Source: Fidelibacterota bacterium MT.SAG.2
Lineage (GTDB): Bacteria > Fidelibacterota > SORT01
Direction: 5' to 3'
Assembly (NCBI GenBank): GCA_004402915.1
Contig: SORU01000005.1
Coordinates: 7,559 to 71,558 of the forward strand
DNA length: 64,000 bases
A program made the translations under genes and the position numbers. The notes beneath the pieces are model-generated. The model saw only the letters and a list, made by a program, of their open reading frames with translations. It was not told the DNA's origin and ran no database searches. This document shows positions 2,890 to 43,004 of this stretch, in pieces. Every line of letters starts with the position of its first letter. The stretch's first letter is position 1.

Positions 2890-4006
2890 ATGAATTTACA
2901 AAAGTCTATTCCTGGCTTTTTGATTTCAGTGCTACTTTTCTATAACGTCGCATCTCCTTTCTCATTTCCGGACGATAGAATTGTGATTGCGGTTGTGGAC
3001 TTCAAAAACACCGGTCAAGATGAGAGTTATAATTTCCTCGAAGAAACCATTTCTGAGGCTATCATAACAAAACTTGCTAAGGGCGGAAACTTTGAAATAG
3101 TCGAGAGATCTCGGCTTAAGGAAGCATTGAAGGAAATGGAACTTGGTATGACCGGATTATTGGATGAACAAACCGCTGTCGAAGTTGGAAGAGCTGTCGG
3201 GGCGAACGCGATCTTACTGGGGAGCTTCGTTTCAATCGGAAACGTTATTCGTATTAACGCCCGTCTTACTAGACGTAGAAACGAGCAGAATAATCAATGC
3301 AGAAATTGTGCAAGGCAGTGTAGGGAAAGAAATTTTTAATCTCATGGACAAATTGGCCGATTTGATCGAGGCACAGCTCCTTGGTGAAACTGAACCGATT
3401 GTGCAGGATCGACCGATTCCAGTAGAGGCACAGCTCCTTGGTGAAGCTAAACCGATTGTGCAGGATCGACCGATTCCAGTAAAGGCTGAGAAGAAAATTG
3501 ATTCATGGTTTTTTCGTATAGCAGTTGGCGCAGCTAATAACATTTATCCTGAAGAACTCCAGGACGTACTGGATGAATTGGAGGATATACCCGATATTAA
3601 CAAAATATCATTTAATTTTGATTTCAGTCTTTACCGATCATTGTCGGATCGAAAGACAATGATCGGATTTACATACAACGGATCGGGTGATGCCTATGAA
3701 TTTAAGGGTGATGAATTGAATTTCTATCAATATCTCTTCGGGATTAGCCTGATACACTATCCTGGGAATATAATTGGCAATGGATTATATGTTCGCGGGG
3801 ATTTGGGGACAGCATTTTTGATATTTGATAGTAGTTTTGGAAATGCAGAACAAAGCGAGAACGGATTCGGATACCAATTGGGCGCAGGCTATTCCTTACC
3901 CACGGCGATAGGGATAGAGTTTGATGCGATGCTAAGCTATGGTGGTAAAAAAATTGAAGACAAAGATTATTCAGTGGTTTTATTCAATTTTGGGGTTTCG
4001 TTCTAG
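2890..4006 (+). pseudogene. CsgG/LpoB-like lipoprotein domain fused to a C-terminal beta-barrel-like region, interrupted by a +1 frameshift near 3268
   Basis: ORF 2890-3339 ends ...LLGSFVSIGNVIRINARL. The family-typical continuation LDVETSRIINAEIVQGS is found in the +1 frame of ORF 3164-4006. The junction reads gcc cgt ctt a cta gac. The C-terminus ends in FNFGVSF. Confidence 0.6.
3368..3481 (+). repeat. 2 x 57-bp in-frame tandem duplication (EAQLLGE[TA][EK]PIVQDRPIPV[EK])
   Basis: Copies at 3368-3424 and 3425-3481 differ at only a few bases. Confidence 0.9.
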
Positions 4007-4948: not shown

Positions 4949-5172
4949 TTATAATACCCTATTTAATTTAAATTTTGCCCGCAAATTTAGAAGATGAAAT
5001 CAATCAGATCTCGCATTTATAAATCTTTCCCGTTCACAGCCTTTAAACATAACAATTTTATCGGCGAATAGCAAGAAATTATCACTATTCCGGCTTGAAT
5101 AATTTAAATATTTTATTTGTGATGTTTTAGGCTTAGTTATTCCCAAATCAGATTCAAATATAAATTGTTTAT

Positions 5173-5218
5173 AGCGCAAGGAAAGTGAGCCGACCTAACG
5201 CACAAAAAACGACAATAT
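5173..5218 (+). repeat. accessory-region repeat, copy 1 (degenerate core)
   Basis: AGCGCAAGGAAAGTGAGCCGACCTAACGCACAAAAAACGACAATATC aligns to the core GTGGCGAAAATGAGCCAACCTAAACGTCACAAAACAACATCAAAC. Confidence 0.55.
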
Positions 5219-5429
5219 CTTTTAAATGGGATAAAAAGTAGGAACGGGTATATGACCTAATAGTGTAAAGAAGAGAAGCAATACAATTCTTGGTTGACAC
5301 CACTTGCTTCTCTTCTTTTGAAGATGTTGTTGAGGTAACTATAATATATAATGATCATTCCGCACTGCGGTGATACTGATCACAAGTCTAAATAATTTGA
5401 AATCGAGAGGGAAGGAATAAATTCTTAAC

Positions 5430-5876: not shown

Positions 5877-6212
5877 TGCATTCCCTTTTGGTATTAAATA
5901 CACAAACTACTTGCCAGCTCAAACCTGTTGAACTGAAAAACTCTTACATCATATACACTATTTACTCGTTTAATATAATATGATCTATATGCCCTGTCAA
6001 GGAGATTTCTATGAATTATGAAAAAAAAGTAATTATTATATATAAAAATCTGATAACACATTGTTATTATGTATGTTACAGAAATAGTTTATAAGTATGC
6101 TACTATCGAGAAAATCCACGATTTTATTAGATAAGAAGTGATTGGTTCTCTATATTAAGATTTTCGCATAATAAAAGATGTTCAACAATCAAATATTGGA
6201 GAGGAATAAATC

Positions 6213-6713
6213 TTGAATAAAATGATCATATTGGTCTTTTCGTTTTCACTGATTGCCTGTCAGGCGTCTGCTATAAACACACTCACGGAACGGGTTGAAT
6301 CCGAACAAACTGAACCCGTATTGACAGACGGCTATGATGCACTTCTTGCCGCAGAATTGGGCGCCGATGATTATGGTATGTCTCAATACGTTATGGCATT
6401 TCTGAAAGCCGGACCGAACCGTTCGCAGGATTCGTTAGCTCAAATAGAATTGCAGGCGGGTCATATGGCAAATATCCAGCGGCTGCAAAAAATGGGAAAG
6501 CTGGTATTAGCGGGACCGTTTTTGGATGATGGGGATCTGAAAGGAATCTTTATTTTTGCGGCCGAGAGTGTGGAGGAAGCTGAAGAATTGATAACGACTG
6601 ATCCGGCGATCATCTCGGGCAGACTTGTGATGGAGATGCATCCATGGTACGGTTCTGCCGCAGTCAAGCAAATATCGAATATTCATAAAAAGGTACAAAA
6701 GATTCAATTTTGA
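6213..6713 (+). CDS. YciI-like domain protein with lipoprotein-type signal
   Basis: A lipobox LIAC is present. YVMAFLKAGPN...GKLVLAGPF...GIFIF...EEAEELITTDPA...HPW matches the YCII-related pattern. Confidence 0.7.
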   Translation: MNKMIILVFSFSLIACQASAINTLTERVESEQTEPVLTDGYDALLAAELGADDYGMSQYVMAFLKAGPNRSQDSLAQIELQAGHMANIQRLQKMGKLVLAGPFLDDGDLKGIFIFAAESVEEAEELITTDPAIISGRLVMEMHPWYGSAAVKQISNIHKKVQKIQF

Positions 6714-6723
6714 TTATTTTAAT

Positions 6724-6768
6724 GTGGCGAAGCTGAGCCGACTCAATTGTCACATAACAACATTAATC
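6724..6768 (+). repeat. accessory-region repeat, copy 2 (core only)
   Basis: The sequence is GTGGCGAAGCTGAGCCGACTCAATTGTCACATAACAACATTAATC. It starts 10 nt after the YciI-like stop. Confidence 0.7.
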
Positions 6769-7574: not shown

Positions 7575-7624
7575 TATTGCCATACTGATAATGGAGGGGC
7601 TGGTAATGGATGATCGAATTTTGT

Positions 7625-7748
7625 CCGGCGAAAATGAACCTACCCGAACGTCGAAAGACAAAATCAAACAACACTAATCAACAAATGGAAAAATCCTTGA
7701 TAAATGGTGCTGAATCAAAGGTTTTGGCTCTATTGCATTGTAGCGGTG
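7625..7748 (+). repeat. accessory-region repeat, copy 3 (full length, includes tRNA-3'-end-like TGTAGCGG)
   Basis: CCGGCGAAAATGAACCTACCCGAACGTCGAAAGACAAAATCAAACAACACTAATCAACAAATGGAAAAATCCTTGATAAATGGTGCTGAATCAAAGGTTTTGGCTCTATTGCATTGTAGCGGTG aligns along its whole length with 9987-10120. Confidence 0.8.
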
Positions 7749-8710: not shown

Positions 8711-8871
8711 ATCACTTCTCCGTTCTCATCTAAATTTCGTGTCTGTTCTCCTTGAATATATAGACGTCTTTCTACCGAAAATTGTTGCATTATGAGGGAG
8801 AATATTAGCGCATGAAACCATTTAAGCTTGGGGCATTATAGATTACTCTATGCAGGCATTGAATTTACAGT

Positions 8872-8980
8872 GTGGCGAAAATGAGCCAACCTAATCGTCA
8901 CAAAACAACATCAAACAGCGCTTCTCTACAAAAGTAAAATCCTTGACTGCATTTGTGAAGTCAAGGACTTTAGTTCGATA
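8872..8980 (+). repeat. accessory-region repeat, copy 4 (core plus hairpin tail)
   Basis: The core is GTGGCGAAAATGAGCCAACCTAATCGTCACAAAACAACATCAAAC. It is followed by AAAATCCTTGAC...GTCAAGGACTTTAGTTCGATA, which contains a 7-bp perfect stem at 8941-8947/8961-8967. Confidence 0.8.
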
Positions 8981-9223: not shown

Positions 9224-9384
9224 TTGTTTCCTCCAAGTTATACATTTAATTACGAATCAATTATAAAGCATTTTAAAATACTTTAAAGGGTTTGCCGAGT
9301 CAAGAATTTAATTATTACCAATTATCTATTCTAATTATAAAGCTAAAATCCTCGTGGTTTCTAATTTCGATGAATTACATTAGT

Positions 9385-9429
9385 GTGGCGAAAATGAGTC
9401 AACTTAAACGTTACGAAACAACATCAAAC
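9385..9429 (+). repeat. accessory-region repeat, copy 5 (core; degenerate tail to about 9500)
   Basis: The sequence is GTGGCGAAAATGAGTCAACTTAAACGTTACGAAACAACATCAAAC. Confidence 0.8.
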
Positions 9430-9935: not shown

Positions 9936-9986
9936 TAAAAAGTAGATTAACCAAACTTTCATGGCCACTCTTCAATAATTCAAAGG

Positions 9987-10112
9987 GTGGCGAAAATGAG
10001 CCAACCTAAACGTCACAAAACAACATCAAACGACACGAAACAACACTAATCGACAATTAGAAAAATCCCCGATTTCTTAAGTGAAATCAAGGACTTTGGC
10101 TCTATATCTTTG
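9987..10112 (+). repeat. accessory-region repeat, copy 6 (full length, abuts the tRNA 3' end)
   Basis: The core GTGGCGAAAATGAGCCAACCTAAACGTCACAAAACAACATCAAAC is followed by an internal sub-repeat (GACACGAAACAACACTAATC) and the tail AAAATCCCCGATTTCTTAAGTGAAATCAAGGACTTTGGCTCTATATCTT. Confidence 0.85.
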
Positions 10113-10186
<74 letters not shown>

Positions 10187-28012: not shown

Positions 28013-29146
28013 TTGGCAGTTAGGTTGCGATTAAGAAGAACCGGAAAGAAAAAACAAGCGCACTACCGTTTGGTAGCGGCGGATTCACGATCCAAAAGAG
28101 ACGGCAGATTTTTAGAAACTCTCGGGCATTATAACCCTCGATTGGATCCTCCTGTTGCCGTAGTCAAAGAGGATAGAATCTATTACTGGATCGATAAGGG
28201 CGCCGAGATGACTGAGGCTTTCCGTGGAATTATGAAGAATCAAGGGCTTCTTCTTAAGTTCAATCTGATGAAGAAAGGCGCCTCTGAGACCGAAATAAAT
28301 GAAGAGATGCAAAAATGGGCTATGTCTCATGAGCTGCGAGTTCAGAAGAGAAGGGCAAGAATATCCAAGAAGAAGAAGCAGAAAGCCAAGATGGAAGCTG
28401 ATGCAGTCGATACAGCAGAGGAGACTCCTGTTGTAGATGAGGGAGCGGAAGTCGCTGCAGAAGCAGCTCCCGCAGAAGAAGCTCCCGTAGAGGAAAAGGC
28501 GGAAGATAAACCCGCAGAAGAAGCTCCCGTAGAGGAGACGACGGAAGATAAACCTGCAGAGGATGCTCCCGCAGAGGAGAAGTCTGAGGAAAAGGCGGAA
28601 GATAAACCCGCAGAAGAAGCTCCCGCAGAGGAGAAGTCCGAGGAAAAGGCGGAAGATAAACCTGTCGAAGAAGCTCCGGCGGAGGAGAAAGCTGAGGAGA
28701 AAGCCGAAGAGAAACCTGTAGAAGAAGCTCCCGTTGAGGAGAAGTCTGAGGAAAAAGCGGAAGATAAACCCGCAGAAGAAGCTCCCGTTGAGGAGAAGTC
28801 TGAGGAAAAGGAGGAAGAAAAACCTGCCGAAGAAACTCCTGAGAGGGAGACAGCCGAAGACAAACCCGCCGAAGAGGTTCCCGCAGAGGAGAAGTCTGAG
28901 GAAAAGGCGGAAGATAAACCCGCGGAAGAGGCTCCTGCAGATGAAACTCCTGTAGAAGAGGCTAAGGATAAAGAAGAAAAACCTAAACCTAAAAAAGCAG
29001 CAGCTAAGAAAAAGCCGGCTGCTAAAAAGAAGACCGAACCGGAATCGAAGAAGGAAACAGAGAAGAAACCTAAGAAGAAAGCCGAAGAGAAACCTAAGAA
29101 GGCGACAGCTGAGAAAACCAAAAAGAAAGATGAAGGCGAAAAATAA
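28013..29146 (+). CDS. rpsP: 30S ribosomal protein bS16 with a roughly 290-aa repetitive acidic/lysine-rich C-terminal extension
   Basis: The N-terminus MAVRLRLRRTGKKKQAHYRLVAADSRSKRDGRFLETLGHYNP is canonical S16. The rest is AEDKPAEEAP(A/V)EEKSEEK repeats followed by a K/A/P-rich tail. Confidence 0.9.
   Translation: MAVRLRLRRTGKKKQAHYRLVAADSRSKRDGRFLETLGHYNPRLDPPVAVVKEDRIYYWIDKGAEMTEAFRGIMKNQGLLLKFNLMKKGASETEINEEMQKWAMSHELRVQKRRARISKKKKQKAKMEADAVDTAEETPVVDEGAEVAAEAAPAEEAPVEEKAEDKPAEEAPVEETTEDKPAEDAPAEEKSEEKAEDKPAEEAPAEEKSEEKAEDKPVEEAPAEEKAEEKAEEKPVEEAPVEEKSEEKAEDKPAEEAPVEEKSEEKEEEKPAEETPERETAEDKPAEEVPAEEKSEEKAEDKPAEEAPADETPVEEAKDKEEKPKPKKAAAKKKPAAKKKTEPESKKETEKKPKKKAEEKPKKATAEKTKKKDEGEK
28441..28960 (+). 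repeat. in-frame tandem repeats, 54-bp (18-aa) period, about 9 units
   Basis: GCGGAAGATAAACCCGCAGAAGAAGCTCCCG(C/T)AGAGGAGAAGTCTGAGGAAAAG recurs with small variations and a few shorter units. Confidence 0.9.
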
Positions 29147-39162: not shown

Positions 39163-40257
39163 TTGGCAACAAGTATGGTTATATTTAAAAAGAAAATTCG
39201 AATGTTTGTACTGCTCTTATCGGTAGTTTTCAGCTCTCAATCTCTGTTTGCTCAAAGCATCGCGAAATACGCCGGCGAGTTTATTTCTACAGGTGTGGGC
39301 GCGCGTGCGCTCGGGATGGGCAGCGCATTCGTCAGTGTTGTGGATGACGTAACGGCCGGTTACTGGAATGCCGCGGGTTTGGCTTCTATAGATTATCAAC
39401 AGGCGTCAGTTATGCATTCCGAACGATTTGCGGGAATAGTAAGCTATGATTACGCCGCTTATGCCCGTCCTTATGCCAATGACAGAGCCATCAGTTTCAG
39501 CATGATACGACTCGGAGTCGAGGGGATCCCGAATACGACCAACGCTCTATTGGATTACGGAACAGACGGCATTCCCGGAACAGACGATCCTGACGGCACG
39601 GAAGGGAACGGTCAACTTGATTTCGGAGAACGGTTAGACGAAGACGCCATAACAAAATTCAGCGATTCCGAGTGGGCATTCTATCTTTCTTACGGCAGAC
39701 AGCTGAACGAGCGATTCGCCTACGGCGGCAGCGTTAAATTCTTACGCAAAGCTTTTGCTAATCACTCCGCCAACGGAATCGGATTCGATGTCGCAATGAA
39801 ATATCGTTTCAGGGATAGATGGTTCATCGGCGCGAACTTGCAGGACGTTACCACCACTCTGCTTGCATGGGACACCGGAACCAAAGAACTCATCTCTCCA
39901 ACACTGCGTTCGGGAATCTCCACTATAGTAAAACTGCCCTTTTCTGAAGCATGGCTGATGCCGAGCATAGAATTCGTGACCCGTACAGACGGTGACAGGT
40001 CGTTTTCTTCTGATGGAATCGGACTCGGAACGTCGTTTACTTCCTTCACTTTCGGAGGGGAACTCCACGTGAATGACCGTTTGATACTTCGGGCAGGACG
40101 AGGGGAGGTCGAACCGTTCAGCGCGGGTATCGGTATCAAGGTCAGGGGGGCGACGGTTGATTATTCGTTCGGCTCCGTCGGCTCGCAGGAAAATCTCGGC
40201 GATACACATCGTGTATCTCTCTTGGTTGATTTTAATTCGGGACTTTGGATAGAGTAA
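39163..40257 (+). CDS. PorV/PorQ-like outer-membrane beta-barrel protein
   Basis: After the signal peptide comes GVGARALGMGSAFVSVVDDVTAGYWNAAGLAS, as in PorV/PorQ (FadL-like) family N-termini. Confidence 0.5.
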   Translation: MATSMVIFKKKIRMFVLLLSVVFSSQSLFAQSIAKYAGEFISTGVGARALGMGSAFVSVVDDVTAGYWNAAGLASIDYQQASVMHSERFAGIVSYDYAAYARPYANDRAISFSMIRLGVEGIPNTTNALLDYGTDGIPGTDDPDGTEGNGQLDFGERLDEDAITKFSDSEWAFYLSYGRQLNERFAYGGSVKFLRKAFANHSANGIGFDVAMKYRFRDRWFIGANLQDVTTTLLAWDTGTKELISPTLRSGISTIVKLPFSEAWLMPSIEFVTRTDGDRSFSSDGIGLGTSFTSFTFGGELHVNDRLILRAGRGEVEPFSAGIGIKVRGATVDYSFGSVGSQENLGDTHRVSLLVDFNSGLWIE

Positions 40258-40269
40258 CCTTTTTTCTTT

Positions 40270-40810
40270 TGTGTCGGTTGGAGCTTGTGCCAAAGACACA
40301 TCACAGAAGCTTTGAACGAACCTCATTGTCATTGCGCATCCGCCAGTTGGCGAATGCGGCAATCTCAAAACTTCCTGTAGCAACAATTACGAGATTACCA
40401 CGTCATCAGCCGGTTGGCTGATTTCTCGTAATGACGATAGTTTAATACTCTTGACACACCCCGTCATTTTGATAAATCAAAATGCCACCCCTCGTGATAG
40501 TAGGGAATATTTTATCCCCTCCTTTTCAAGGAGGGGAAACGCGCAAGCGTGGGGTGGTTTATTATTGAGTGCTGTCAGGGCTCCAAGGGAGTTTCTTTTA
40601 CACAAGCGATAACCTATACTACAATCATCTCCCCTTGAGGGGAGTGTCCGTCAACAGACGGACGAGGGGTGTAACCGTTCTGTGCGCAAAATATAAAAGA
40701 AAATACTGATCACACCCTTTCCCGATAAATCGGGATGACACCTGTGGTAATGTCACCCTCAAGGGAGCCTGCCCGGCATCGGTCTGGCGGGGAGGTTTTG
40801 AATCCCACCC
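40270..40810. repeat. cluster of at least 10 short GC-rich hairpins in recurring modules (REP/MITE-like or structured RNA)
   Basis: Hairpins lie at 40270-40300, 40335-40358, 40405-40422, 40465-40484, 40516-40536, 40539-40550 (GCAA loop), 40629-40644, 40646-40663, 40720-40735 and 40768-40794. There is no credible ORF. Confidence 0.75.
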
Positions 40811-40934
40811 TTGTAAATGAGGAGAATGAGTCAGGTTTGCAGCTTACTCTATGGCTTGACAGTTGGCATTGGCGTAAATAACTTATGCTAAGTAAATTTT
40901 CAATAACGTTACATTTAGCTCAGAGGGAAAAGTC

Positions 40935-43004
40935 ATGAAAAGATTTAAAGTAGTAATAATGCTTCTGCTTGCGGGGGCGGCAGTGACAGCGGGATGCACC
41001 AAGAAGGAATCGGGCGATACAAGTACAAATGGCGAGAGAAAATATTTTTTGGAGAAGGTTCGTAACGTAATGGTGGTACAGGTTTATGCGGACGGGTTTA
41101 AAGACTTGACGTTGAAGGAAAAGATGCTGGCGTGGCACCTGTATAGGTCGGGGATAGCGGGTCGCGACATCTATTACGATCAAAATCACAAGCACGCATT
41201 GCAGATCCGGAATATTCTTGAAGCGATAGTTGAGAATCCCGAAGGAATTGATGAAAAAGTGTATAGCGGAATTCTTGAATACACAAAGCTTTTCTGGATA
41301 AATAACTGTCAATATGACGCGGATAAATCGAGGAAGTTCATTCCGAACGTAAGTTATATCAACTTCTCAAAAGCGGCGTCTATCGCCGAGACAAACGGAG
41401 CTGATTTCGGTTTGGAAGAAGGTGAAGACCTTGACGAGGTTTTGAGCTATTTAAGACCATATATTTTTGACAGGGATTTTGAACCTATCAAGACCAATAA
41501 GAATCCTGAAGAGGGAAAAGATATGCTGGCTGAGAGCGCCGTGAATTTCTATGATGGCGTAACGTTAGCGGACTTTGAAGGATTTGAGGAGAAGAACTCG
41601 TTGAATTCCAAAGTCGTTGTGGAAAACGGAGAGCTGAGAGAGCTCGTATATAGAGCAGGCGGAGACGGGATAGAGCCGGGAATGTACGCCGAAGAGCTCG
41701 AAGCGTCTGCGAGAGAATTGGAGGAAGCGGCTGAATATGCCGAACCGGATCAGGCGAATGTTCTTAGACTGCTTGCCAAGTATTTCCGGACGGGCGATTT
41801 AGAAGATTTTCGGACGTATAACATCGCATGGGTTCAAAACGGCACAAAAATTGATATAATAAACGGCTTTATAGAAGTATATAATGATCCTCGCGGGCAG
41901 AAGGGTTACTATGAGGCAATGCTCGAATTAGTGGATGAAGAAAATACGAGTATGTTGAGGGCATTCGCGGAAAACGCTTTGTATTTTGAACAAAAGGCTC
42001 CCTGGGCTGATGAATACAAACGCGCCGTGATAAGCGCTCCTATAGCAAATGTAGTCTATGCTCTGTTGGGAGCAGGCGCTGCCGGTCCGAAGAGTCCCCG
42101 CGGAATCAACCTCCCGAATGAGCAGGCAATAAGGGAGGAGTATGGCTCCAAAAGTGTTGTGCTGGGGAATGTTGTCATAGCAAGGCATGTAGCCAGCGCC
42201 ACTGCGAAGATGGAAGAGTTTGCCGTCTCAGATGAGATGAGGGCGAGAGCTAAAAAATTCGGTGGATTGATCTTCGATTTAGAAGTTGCGATGCACGAGG
42301 TGGTTGGTCATGCTTCAGGCAAAAAAGCCGCTGATCTTGAAGGCGATCCGGCGGATTATATCAAAGAATATTATTCTACATTGGAAGAAGCGCGGGCTGA
42401 ACTCGTGGCGCTCTGGAATTTCTTTGACCCAAAATTAGTTGAAATGGGAGTCGCTCCCTCAACGGAAGTCGGAAAAGCCGGTTATGATGCTTACGCGATG
42501 GGGGCTCTCACAAATCTCAGGAAAGTTCCTGAAGGCGATCAGTTCGAGGAAGACCATGACCGCGCTACGCACTTGATAGTTGAATACGTCAGGCGAAACA
42601 CATCCGGCATCGAGCTGAAGAAAATTGACGGGAAAACTTATTTCGAGGTCGTTGACTACGATGAGATGCATCGTGGTATTGGGGAAATTCTTTCCAAATT
42701 GATGGAGATAAAGGCGACGGGCGACTATGAAGGCGCGAAAGCTATAATCTCCGAATATGGTATAAAGATAGATACCGAGCTCAGAGATGAGATATTGGAA
42801 CGGTCACTTGCAATAGGCATTTCAGATTTCGATGTGGTTGTGTATCCAAGACTGACACCTCTCTATGGAGCTGAAGGCTCTATAATAGATATAGATATCT
42901 CATATCCGATGGATCTGAAGACTCAGATGCTTGATTTTAAGCATTTCTTTGATGAAGAGGAAAAGGATGAAGAAGTTGATACCCAAGAAGTTGTAATTAA
43001 ATAG
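40935..43004 (+). CDS. dipeptidyl-peptidase III-like M49 metallopeptidase (lipoprotein)
   Basis: The signal ends in TAGC. Zinc motifs HEVVGH (HExxGH) and EEARAE (EExRAE) define M49. Confidence 0.8.
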   Translation: MKRFKVVIMLLLAGAAVTAGCTKKESGDTSTNGERKYFLEKVRNVMVVQVYADGFKDLTLKEKMLAWHLYRSGIAGRDIYYDQNHKHALQIRNILEAIVENPEGIDEKVYSGILEYTKLFWINNCQYDADKSRKFIPNVSYINFSKAASIAETNGADFGLEEGEDLDEVLSYLRPYIFDRDFEPIKTNKNPEEGKDMLAESAVNFYDGVTLADFEGFEEKNSLNSKVVVENGELRELVYRAGGDGIEPGMYAEELEASARELEEAAEYAEPDQANVLRLLAKYFRTGDLEDFRTYNIAWVQNGTKIDIINGFIEVYNDPRGQKGYYEAMLELVDEENTSMLRAFAENALYFEQKAPWADEYKRAVISAPIANVVYALLGAGAAGPKSPRGINLPNEQAIREEYGSKSVVLGNVVIARHVASATAKMEEFAVSDEMRARAKKFGGLIFDLEVAMHEVVGHASGKKAADLEGDPADYIKEYYSTLEEARAELVALWNFFDPKLVEMGVAPSTEVGKAGYDAYAMGALTNLRKVPEGDQFEEDHDRATHLIVEYVRRNTSGIELKKIDGKTYFEVVDYDEMHRGIGEILSKLMEIKATGDYEGAKAIISEYGIKIDTELRDEILERSLAIGISDFDVVVYPRLTPLYGAEGSIIDIDISYPMDLKTQMLDFKHFFDEEEKDEEVDTQEVVIK

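Follow-up and report, generated by a model that had tools for sequence, protein, structure and literature searches.

A probable BIME-like mosaic of CGTC-type palindromic repeats between a porV/porQ-family gene and an M49-family peptidase gene in Marinimicrobia

The repetitive extragenic palindromic (REP) elements, the bacterial interspersed mosaic elements (BIMEs), and the systems that join REP doublets forming hairpins (REPINs) to REP-associated tyrosine transposases (RAYTs) are known from Enterobacteria and Pseudomonas, are tagged by GTAG, and typically have a RAYT (Y1/HUH) gene flanked by the repeats. The dRS3 repeats of Neisseria are linked to phage or insertion sequence (IS) integration. 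A CGTC-tagged REP superfamily, to which dRS3 and the Rickettsia palindromic elements belong, was defined by Di Nocera, De Gregorio & Rocco (2013, BMC Genomics 14:522; PMC3733652). Its members have an unpaired CGTC (or TGTC/CCTC) head, a hairpin with a stem of 8-9 bp that usually opens with A-T pairs and a loop of 4-5 nt, and an unpaired tail that is mostly CCA; they are mainly extragenic, occur mostly as inverted dimers and in some species as clusters, have no known dedicated transposase, and are hosted by Proteobacteria, Chlorobi, Bacteroidetes, Spirochaetes, and Thermotogae (PMC3733652). Here, we characterize a 677-nt spacer at 40258-40934 of a 64-kb stretch of DNA from Fidelibacterota bacterium MT.SAG.2 (the whole analyzed stretch is hereafter the window). 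The spacer lies between a porV/porQ-family gene and an M49-family peptidase gene, and an earlier note, made from the letters of the window, had described it as an island of recurring hairpin modules. We regard the island, with a probability of roughly 0.8, as a BIME-like mosaic of CGTC-type REPs in which two families co-occur.

The main family in the island is built on a unit of 45-60 nt that reads (A)ACACACCCC-GTC-(freely varying hairpin with a 4-12-bp stem)-N-CCA-CCCCTC-loop-GAGGGG-AAT. The CCCCTC/GAGGGG stem of its second, constant hairpin was nearly invariant, and the loop was mostly TCAA, TCGA, or TTnnTA. Because this unit, when reverse-complemented, gives precisely what had been called 'type C', that is, a C-rich/G-rich hairpin, a second hairpin, and GGGGTG(TGT), the types B and C formerly taken for distinct modules are one element in two orientations. 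A larger stem, CCACCCC/GGGGTGG, had also been proposed to enclose two hairpins; it was present in the minimum-energy fold, and it forms because the outer ends of the B-C dimer, ACACACCCC and GGGGTGTGT, pair.

The block CACACCCCGTC-(hairpin)-CCACCCCTC was common to the window and to two loci from Marinimicrobia relatives (L001 and L002), and metagenomes were scanned with the exact pattern CACACCCCGTC-N12-42-CCACCCCTC. At least 120 stretches were recovered, with 2-4 matches on several contigs, and 110 distinct units were present among the matches listed. A covariance model, R1, built from 35 units, detected 193 copies at E < 0.01 in 610 kb of the listed metagenome loci, the densest of which were L125 (10 copies over 14.7 kb) and L140 (8 over 14 kb), and returned nothing better than E = 0.99 from 687 kb of unrelated control loci (L004-L080, mostly Acidobacteriota). 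Over the window, with filters off, R1 matches were confined to the island (two strong and two weak, degenerate copies), and no further copies were found elsewhere in the window by motif search, repeat finding, or R1. In the Marinimicrobia relatives, R1 recovered the expected island copies and one extra in L001.

Based on crude calls of open reading frames (ORFs), 134 of 169 copies were located outside ORFs. Inverted dimers (11 tail-to-tail and 6 head-to-head) exceeded direct pairs (7 head-to-tail), and 108 of the 150 best copies were singlets without inverted termini. With respect to hosts, as labelled by NCBI, proteins of four termite-gut loci (L125, L140, L170, and L200) were identical to those of a Firmicutes/Bacillota-labelled metagenome-assembled genome (MAG), and those of L153 and L160 matched a Candidatus Cloacimonetes MAG (Cloacimonadota), such that the unit occurs under three phylum-level labels, Marinimicrobia included, and in many environments from the deep sea to the termite gut. 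The BIME/REP-like candidate of the earlier note is supported by palindrome families that are dispersed in multiple copies over many contigs, lie between genes either singly or as inverted dimers, and differ among close relatives. No Rfam family was matched at the gathering threshold in the window and eight repeat-rich loci, relaxed E-values gave only noise for the island and L117 (e.g., Whalefall-1 at 14 bits and Chlorobi-1 at 12.6 bits), and literature searches with the exact sequence of the unit returned nothing relevant. The main family is an unusually sequence-conserved, cross-phylum CGTC-REP family that is uncatalogued in Rfam or the searchable literature.

Several contigs held further arrangements of the unit. 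On a marine contig (L116, 60-600 and 2316-2900), it was embedded in a composite of approximately 360 bp, the four copies of which formed two tandem pairs around a single gene. At the end of another contig (L117, 1-440), at least eight units were packed into 440 bp, among them short units that lacked the variable hairpin and read CCCCTC-TTGA-GAGGGG-ACCAA-GGGGTGTGT. A hammerhead reading of CTGATGA...GTC in L117 was rejected, there being no stem II between the core blocks and no such motif in the other copies. A phage-borne element was rejected as well, in that 2.9 million viral contigs yielded three pattern matches, two of which were true units.

Within the island itself, every hairpin that had been reported was found where it had been placed. 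A scan of the window for perfect hairpins (stem of at least 7 bp, loop of 2-9) returned 47, six of them at 40405-40735, as compared with 0.44 expected in the 677-nt spacer (Poisson P = 6.8e-6). Relative to dinucleotide shuffles, the RNA fold of the whole spacer gave z = -5.4 on the plus strand and -7.8 on the minus strand. When folded as single-stranded DNA (ssDNA), four module blocks gave z values of -3.3 to -5.6, and the inter-module stretches at 40258-40317 and 40563-40621 were no better than shuffles. The picture of GC-rich hairpins in an AT-rich background did not hold, with GC of 0.44-0.51 inside the island and 0.42-0.56 in the flanking genes. A protein-coding frame was also considered and rejected: the longest ORF in the island has at most 58 aa, and the region is missing in relatives. 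The spacer was resolved into the following features.

40258-40326, no strand: spacer past the stop codon of the porV/porQ-family gene, not a repeat module (ssDNA z = -0.9 for 40258-40317; no covariance-model match)
40327-40366, plus strand: unit A1, CGTC-type and belonging to the 'GTCATTGCG...GCAATC' REP family (sequence and fold)
40386-40436, minus strand: unit A2, a CGTC-type REP (inverted repeat, fold, and minus-strand regular-expression match)
40401-40425, plus strand: CGTC-tagged hairpin nested in the loop of A2 (perfect 7-bp hairpin)
40452-40509, plus strand: unit B1, a forward main-family copy (R1 35.1 bits, E = 9e-9, whole window, filters off)
40512-40560, minus strand: unit C1, an inverted diverged copy (R1 weak, 6.5 bits, E = 2.1)
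40561-40624, no strand: unstructured inter-module spacer (ssDNA z = +1.2)
40625-40674, minus strand: unit C2, an inverted main-family singlet (R1 36.4 bits, E = 4e-9)
40708-40752, plus strand: unit B3, a degenerate forward copy (R1 weak, 8.1 bits, E = 0.72; perfect 7-bp hairpin)
40753-40812, minus strand: candidate decayed inverted partner of B3 (fold z = -3.4 for 40705-40815; no covariance-model match)
40855-40934, plus strand: conserved leader of the M49 peptidase gene with promoter-like blocks (outside the repeat cluster)

Unit B1 reads ACACACCCC-GTC-(CATTTTGAT-AA-ATCAAAATG)-CCA-CCCCTC...GGG-AAT and fits the metagenome scan pattern, with its second hairpin being degenerate. It forms a tail-to-tail dimer with C1, which comprises the constant hairpin CCCCTCCTT/AAGGAGGGG, the variable hairpin ACGC-GCAA-GCGT, and the head GGGGTGG; the same architecture was seen in inverted partners in L089, L117, L153, and L160, and was kept in L002 with an altered loop. 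Past 40580, the window and L002 were wholly different in sequence. Read on its own strand, C2 is ACACCCCTCGTC-(CGTCTGTTGACG)-GACA-CTCCCC-TCAA-GGGGAG. It was near-identical in L001 (3632-3681), where compensatory T>G/A>C changes are present in the variable stem and both the neighbors and the module order differ. Unit B3 reads CACACCC-TT-(TCCCGAT-AA-ATCGGGA)-TGACACC and is followed by CCCTCAAGGG, then GCCTGCCCGGCATCGGTCTGGC, then GGGGAGG, a region that is possibly, and tentatively, its decayed inverted partner. In the window, the main family accordingly amounts to a tail-to-tail dimer, an inverted singlet, and what is tentatively a decayed dimer.

The second family in the island, type A, has the form (C/T)GTC-ATTGCG...GCAAT-CTC and was present in two copies in the window, one of which contained a nested CGTC hairpin. 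In A1, the head is TGTC, the stem (ATTGCGCATCCGCCA/TGGCGAATGCGGCAAT) is long and imperfect, and the tail is CTC, so that the unit reads TGTC-ATTGCG...GCAAT-CTC. The head of A2 is CGTC, its 9-bp stem (ATTACGAGA/TCTCGTAAT) opens with A-T pairs, and its loop contains the oppositely oriented nested hairpin, which itself has a CGTC head, the hairpin ATCAGCC-GGTT-GGCTGAT, and a TTC tail. A homologue of A2 was found in L001 at approximately 3536-3590, with a counterpart of the nested hairpin (CGTC-GTCCCGAAGCTTCGGGAC-TCC) in the same place and of the same architecture, and with a different stem sequence. The GTCATTGCG...GCAATC pattern was detected in 16 copies in 13 of the main-family metagenome loci and in one copy in L001; the control loci (687 kb) yielded none.

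A third hairpin family, GGTCAGG-N4-6-CCTGACTCGCAC, was confined to the Marinimicrobia relatives, at 3315-3340, 3603-3627, and 6130-6155 in L001, at 3517-3534 and 3556-3580 in L002, and as a remnant at about 5147-5170 in L081; neither the window nor the 120 listed metagenome loci contained it.

Comparison of syntenic loci exposed extensive turnover. Two relatives, L081 and L083, shared the gene order of the window (SelB-MutS-PorV-M49-NFACT) and had no island, their spacers being 162 bp and 114 bp at PorV identities of 91% and 78%, respectively. The island was 559 bp in L002 and 792 bp in L001/L082, where the module order was different, and in the alignment of the syntenic spacers whole modules were present, absent, or reordered, with no collinear conserved sequence. 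The next spacer, between the M49 and NFACT genes, was empty in the window, L002, and L081, which have 55 bp and a terminator-like hairpin only. In L001, the same spacer (6095-6320) held a composite of approximately 216 bp, formed by a D hairpin, a main-family unit, and a type-A-like unit, that sits past the M49 terminator and between the similar 10-mers TTTCCTGTAA and TTTTCTATAA, which may represent a target duplication.

This turnover bears on whether the hairpins are the helices of a large structured noncoding RNA (ncRNA), as the earlier note had also entertained, or of several small RNAs. In favor of such RNAs, both strands fold very stably, some of the loops resemble GNRA or UNCG loops on one strand, and the variable hairpin covaries strongly: across 149 aligned copies, the variable stem was 92% paired, all five pairs covaried with all four Watson-Crick types, and pairing dropped to about 50% in sliding controls. 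However, G-U or U-G occupied only 9 of about 650 cells of the variable stem, and in the four solid (first) stem pairs there were 4 G-U against 21 other mismatches, which is the 2-in-12 share given by chance; G-U was therefore no commoner than other mismatches. The constant hairpin had a few compensatory C-G to U-A changes. Orientation with respect to flanking genes was random, whether all copies were counted (52 vs 52 and 58 vs 54) or singlets only (27 vs 33 and 29 vs 36), and in the island the units run both ways round. Since the pairs are almost solely Watson-Crick and the orientation is random, these data point to a constraint that acts on a hairpin or palindrome at the DNA level, or to the same degree on the two strands, and not on the transcript of one strand. 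Together with the empty orthologous sites in relatives, the different module order in L001, the unstructured inter-module stretches, and the lack of an Rfam match at gathering or relaxed thresholds, they leave the locus with neither orthologous conservation, nor tolerance of G-U, nor a consistent gene orientation, and make an ncRNA extremely improbable.

The ends of the dimers and the L001 insertion invite a different explanation, in which the island would be a graveyard of classical miniature inverted-repeat transposable elements (MITEs), namely deletion derivatives of DDE-type IS with terminal inverted repeats and target-site duplications. The dimers do have a 9-bp terminal inverted repeat (ACACACCCC...GGGGTGTGT), and the M49-NFACT insertion is flanked by similar 10-mers in the one filled/empty comparison. 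Against this, most copies are singlets that lack inverted termini, the 45-60-nt units fall below the typical size of MITEs, copies within a genome are heterogeneous and carry compensatory stem changes, and no IS parent was found in the 120 listed loci. Furthermore, a consistent target duplication was not established, and the single case overlaps the T-tract of a terminator. The MITE graveyard proposed in the earlier note is hence compatible with the data, weakly and nothing more, and we judge it to be an improbable account.

The position of the cluster, past the 3' end of porV and ahead of a promoter-like block that is conserved, raises the prospect that the repeats were co-opted as an insulator, a bidirectional terminator, or a stabilizer of the mRNA 3' end between porV and the M49 gene. 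REPs have been proposed to act as transcription terminators or transcript stabilizers in other bacteria (PMC3733652), and the constant hairpin CCCCTC/GAGGGG is usually followed by AAUU or AUUU. Yet close relatives lack the island, orientation with respect to the upstream gene is random, singlets included, and a terminator scan of the island found none. Such a role would be at best a secondary effect that leaves the family unexplained, and we give it little credence. As a general explanation of the constant hairpin, a terminator or attenuator was rejected on the grounds of the random orientation.

Several observations weigh against the island being a mosaic of CGTC-type REPs with the history outlined below. 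Only one cluster is present in the 64-kb window, and the CGTC and CCA of the metagenome units were mostly imposed by the search pattern, while R1 matches beyond that pattern include variants without GTC (CCCCGCC/CCCCGGC). The stems of the main family span 4-12 bp and its loops often have 3 nt, as opposed to the published 8-9 bp and 4-5 nt. Copies within one genome were heterogeneous, belonging to several subtypes and not near-identical, a pattern that speaks against recent bursts and would allow each copy to be under selection; the second hairpin with AAUUUU could act as a terminator in some of them. All-versus-all clustering of 604 ORFs from the 120 listed loci uncovered no recurrent neighbor gene, no family being present in more than seven loci. 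Likewise, phmmer searches of six-frame ORFs from about 870 kb with three seeds gave no matches. Two of the seeds were validated as Pfam Y1_Tnp and cover IS200-like Y1 transposases; the third, a RAYT seed, failed validation, and the search was therefore weak for divergent RAYTs.

By analogy with the REP/REPIN/RAYT and IS200/IS605 systems, the units could be non-autonomous DNA elements that would be recognized as ssDNA hairpins by a trans-acting enzyme encoded elsewhere. Copies would enter permissive stretches that separate a terminator from the following promoter, in many cases beside or inside older copies, and local duplication, deletion, and decay would follow. To our knowledge, the transposase of the CGTC REPs has been missing since 2013. 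RepRanger (2025) offers nothing on CGTC mobilization. In the two-hairpin unit, inclusive of its ACACACCC leader, over 20 bases are the same in Marinimicrobia, Cloacimonadota, and the Bacillota-labelled MAG, and one could speculate, though we consider it rather unlikely, that it is the recognition module of a horizontally spreading ssDNA enzyme that would be this 'missing transposase'. If true, the sharp signature would render the enzyme discoverable through co-occurrence of gene and element across genomes.

The island is then most likely a junk-like or mobile DNA cluster and no RNA gene, an ordinary kind of feature of moderate interest owing to the conserved cross-phylum family. A tempting candidate for a large structured RNA is removed and replaced by a mosaic of REP-type DNA palindromes, and a sharply defined repeat family from poorly studied, uncultured lineages is documented with a covariance model. 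Recognition of such repeats is of practical use, since they interrupt assemblies, give rise to spurious ORFs, and can pass for RNA motifs when genomes are screened comparatively. Moreover, the cross-phylum sequence conservation provides a handle on the spread of CGTC-type REPs.

Regarding the gene setting, the ORF upstream of the island (39163-40257, plus strand; stop codon 40255-40257) encodes 364 aa, had no Pfam match, and has homologues named as PorV/PorQ family. The M49-family peptidase gene is at 40935-43004 (plus strand), with MutS encoded upstream and an NFACT-family gene downstream in the wider neighborhood. The closest genomic relatives of the peptidase were on MAG and single amplified genome contigs of Marinimicrobia (Neomarinimicrobiota), at 94% and 88% identity, and the host of the window is a member of Marinimicrobia. 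The region at 40855-40934 contains CTTGACAGTTG, a TAACTT located 17 nt past the TTGACA hexamer, and AGAGGGAAAAGTC ahead of the ATG at 40935. Its promoter-like blocks were identical in the window, L001, and L002, the region was also kept in the island-less L081, and it is a putative M49 promoter. A second M49 peptidase gene, 66% identical, was found on L003 (SORT01000044), from the same single-cell assembly as L002, in another gene context and with no hairpin island; it is either a paralogue or derived from a second genome within the assembly.

Other repeats were observed elsewhere in the window. Six direct copies of about 45-55 nt with the consensus GTGGCGAAAATGAGCCAACCTAAACGTCACAAAACAACATCAAAC were present on the plus strand (5166-5220, 6714-6768, 7615-7669, 8862-8916, 9375-9429, and 9977-10031), in a gene-poor stretch of small ORFs beside a tRNA gene (10113-10186, minus strand), and could serve as a common promoter or leader, or constitute a further repeat family. 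A pair of approximately 80 nt (7666-7746 and 10038-10118), 82-86% identical and 2372 nt apart, the second member of which abuts the tRNA gene, may represent a tRNA flank that was duplicated, or a repeat resembling an attachment site. Two repeats were coding: a tandem repeat with 42/54-nt periods at 28394-29095, within the ORF at 28013-29146 (plus strand), that is rich in GAG, GAA, and AAG codons (Glu/Lys/Ala/Pro-rich), and a 57-nt unit at 3368-3481, tandemly duplicated with 96% identity within the ORF at 3164-4006 (plus strand).

Among the systems described to date, the GTAG-tagged REPs and REPINs resemble the island in being short extragenic palindromes whose inverted doublets form larger hairpins, in building mosaics of multiple types per spacer, in being present or absent among relatives, and in having a hairpin constrained at the DNA level. 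However, the heads here are CGTC or TGTC and no unit had GTAG at the foot of its stem, so by its tag the island is not a GTAG/RAYT REPIN system, and a RAYT, as assumed in the earlier note, would be at most a putative partner. With the seeds described above, no RAYT (Y1/HUH) gene was found near any copy. In addition, stem sequences were far more diverse within a genome than in REPIN populations, and flank sequence was shared across phylum-level labels, whereas REPINs are lineage-specific. In the dRS3- and Correia-rich regions of Neisseria, most copies are in large mosaic intergenic clusters and interleaved with other repeats, an arrangement also seen here, while the Neisseria and Rickettsia elements represent other sequence families from other hosts.

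The closest correspondence is with the CGTC-tagged REPs, a comparison made on the text description in PMC3733652. A head of this class was located 5' of the stem in B1 (CCCCGTC), C2 (minus strand, CTCGTC), A1 (TGTC), A2 (minus strand, CGTC), and the nested hairpin (ACGTC). B1 (GCCA) and the L001 and L002 units had the N-CCA tail past the hairpin, and tails departed from CCA in C2 (ACA) and in A1 and A2 (CTC/TGT). The stem of A2 (ATTACGAGA) fits the published form exactly, with 9 bp and A-T first, and the first stem pair was A-T or T-A in 87 of 146 sequences. The habit is shared as well, comprising singlets, inverted dimers, and clusters that are mostly intergenic, distributed over several phyla, and have no linked transposase. 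The main family differs from the published class in that head-to-head dimers do not outnumber tail-to-tail ones, and it adds two parts for which we found no description among CGTC REPs: the ACACACCC leader and the near-invariant second hairpin, CCCCTC-loop-GAGGGG-AAT. Finally, its hosts are unlike those published for the CGTC REPs, being Marinimicrobia, Cloacimonadota, and a Bacillota-labelled MAG.

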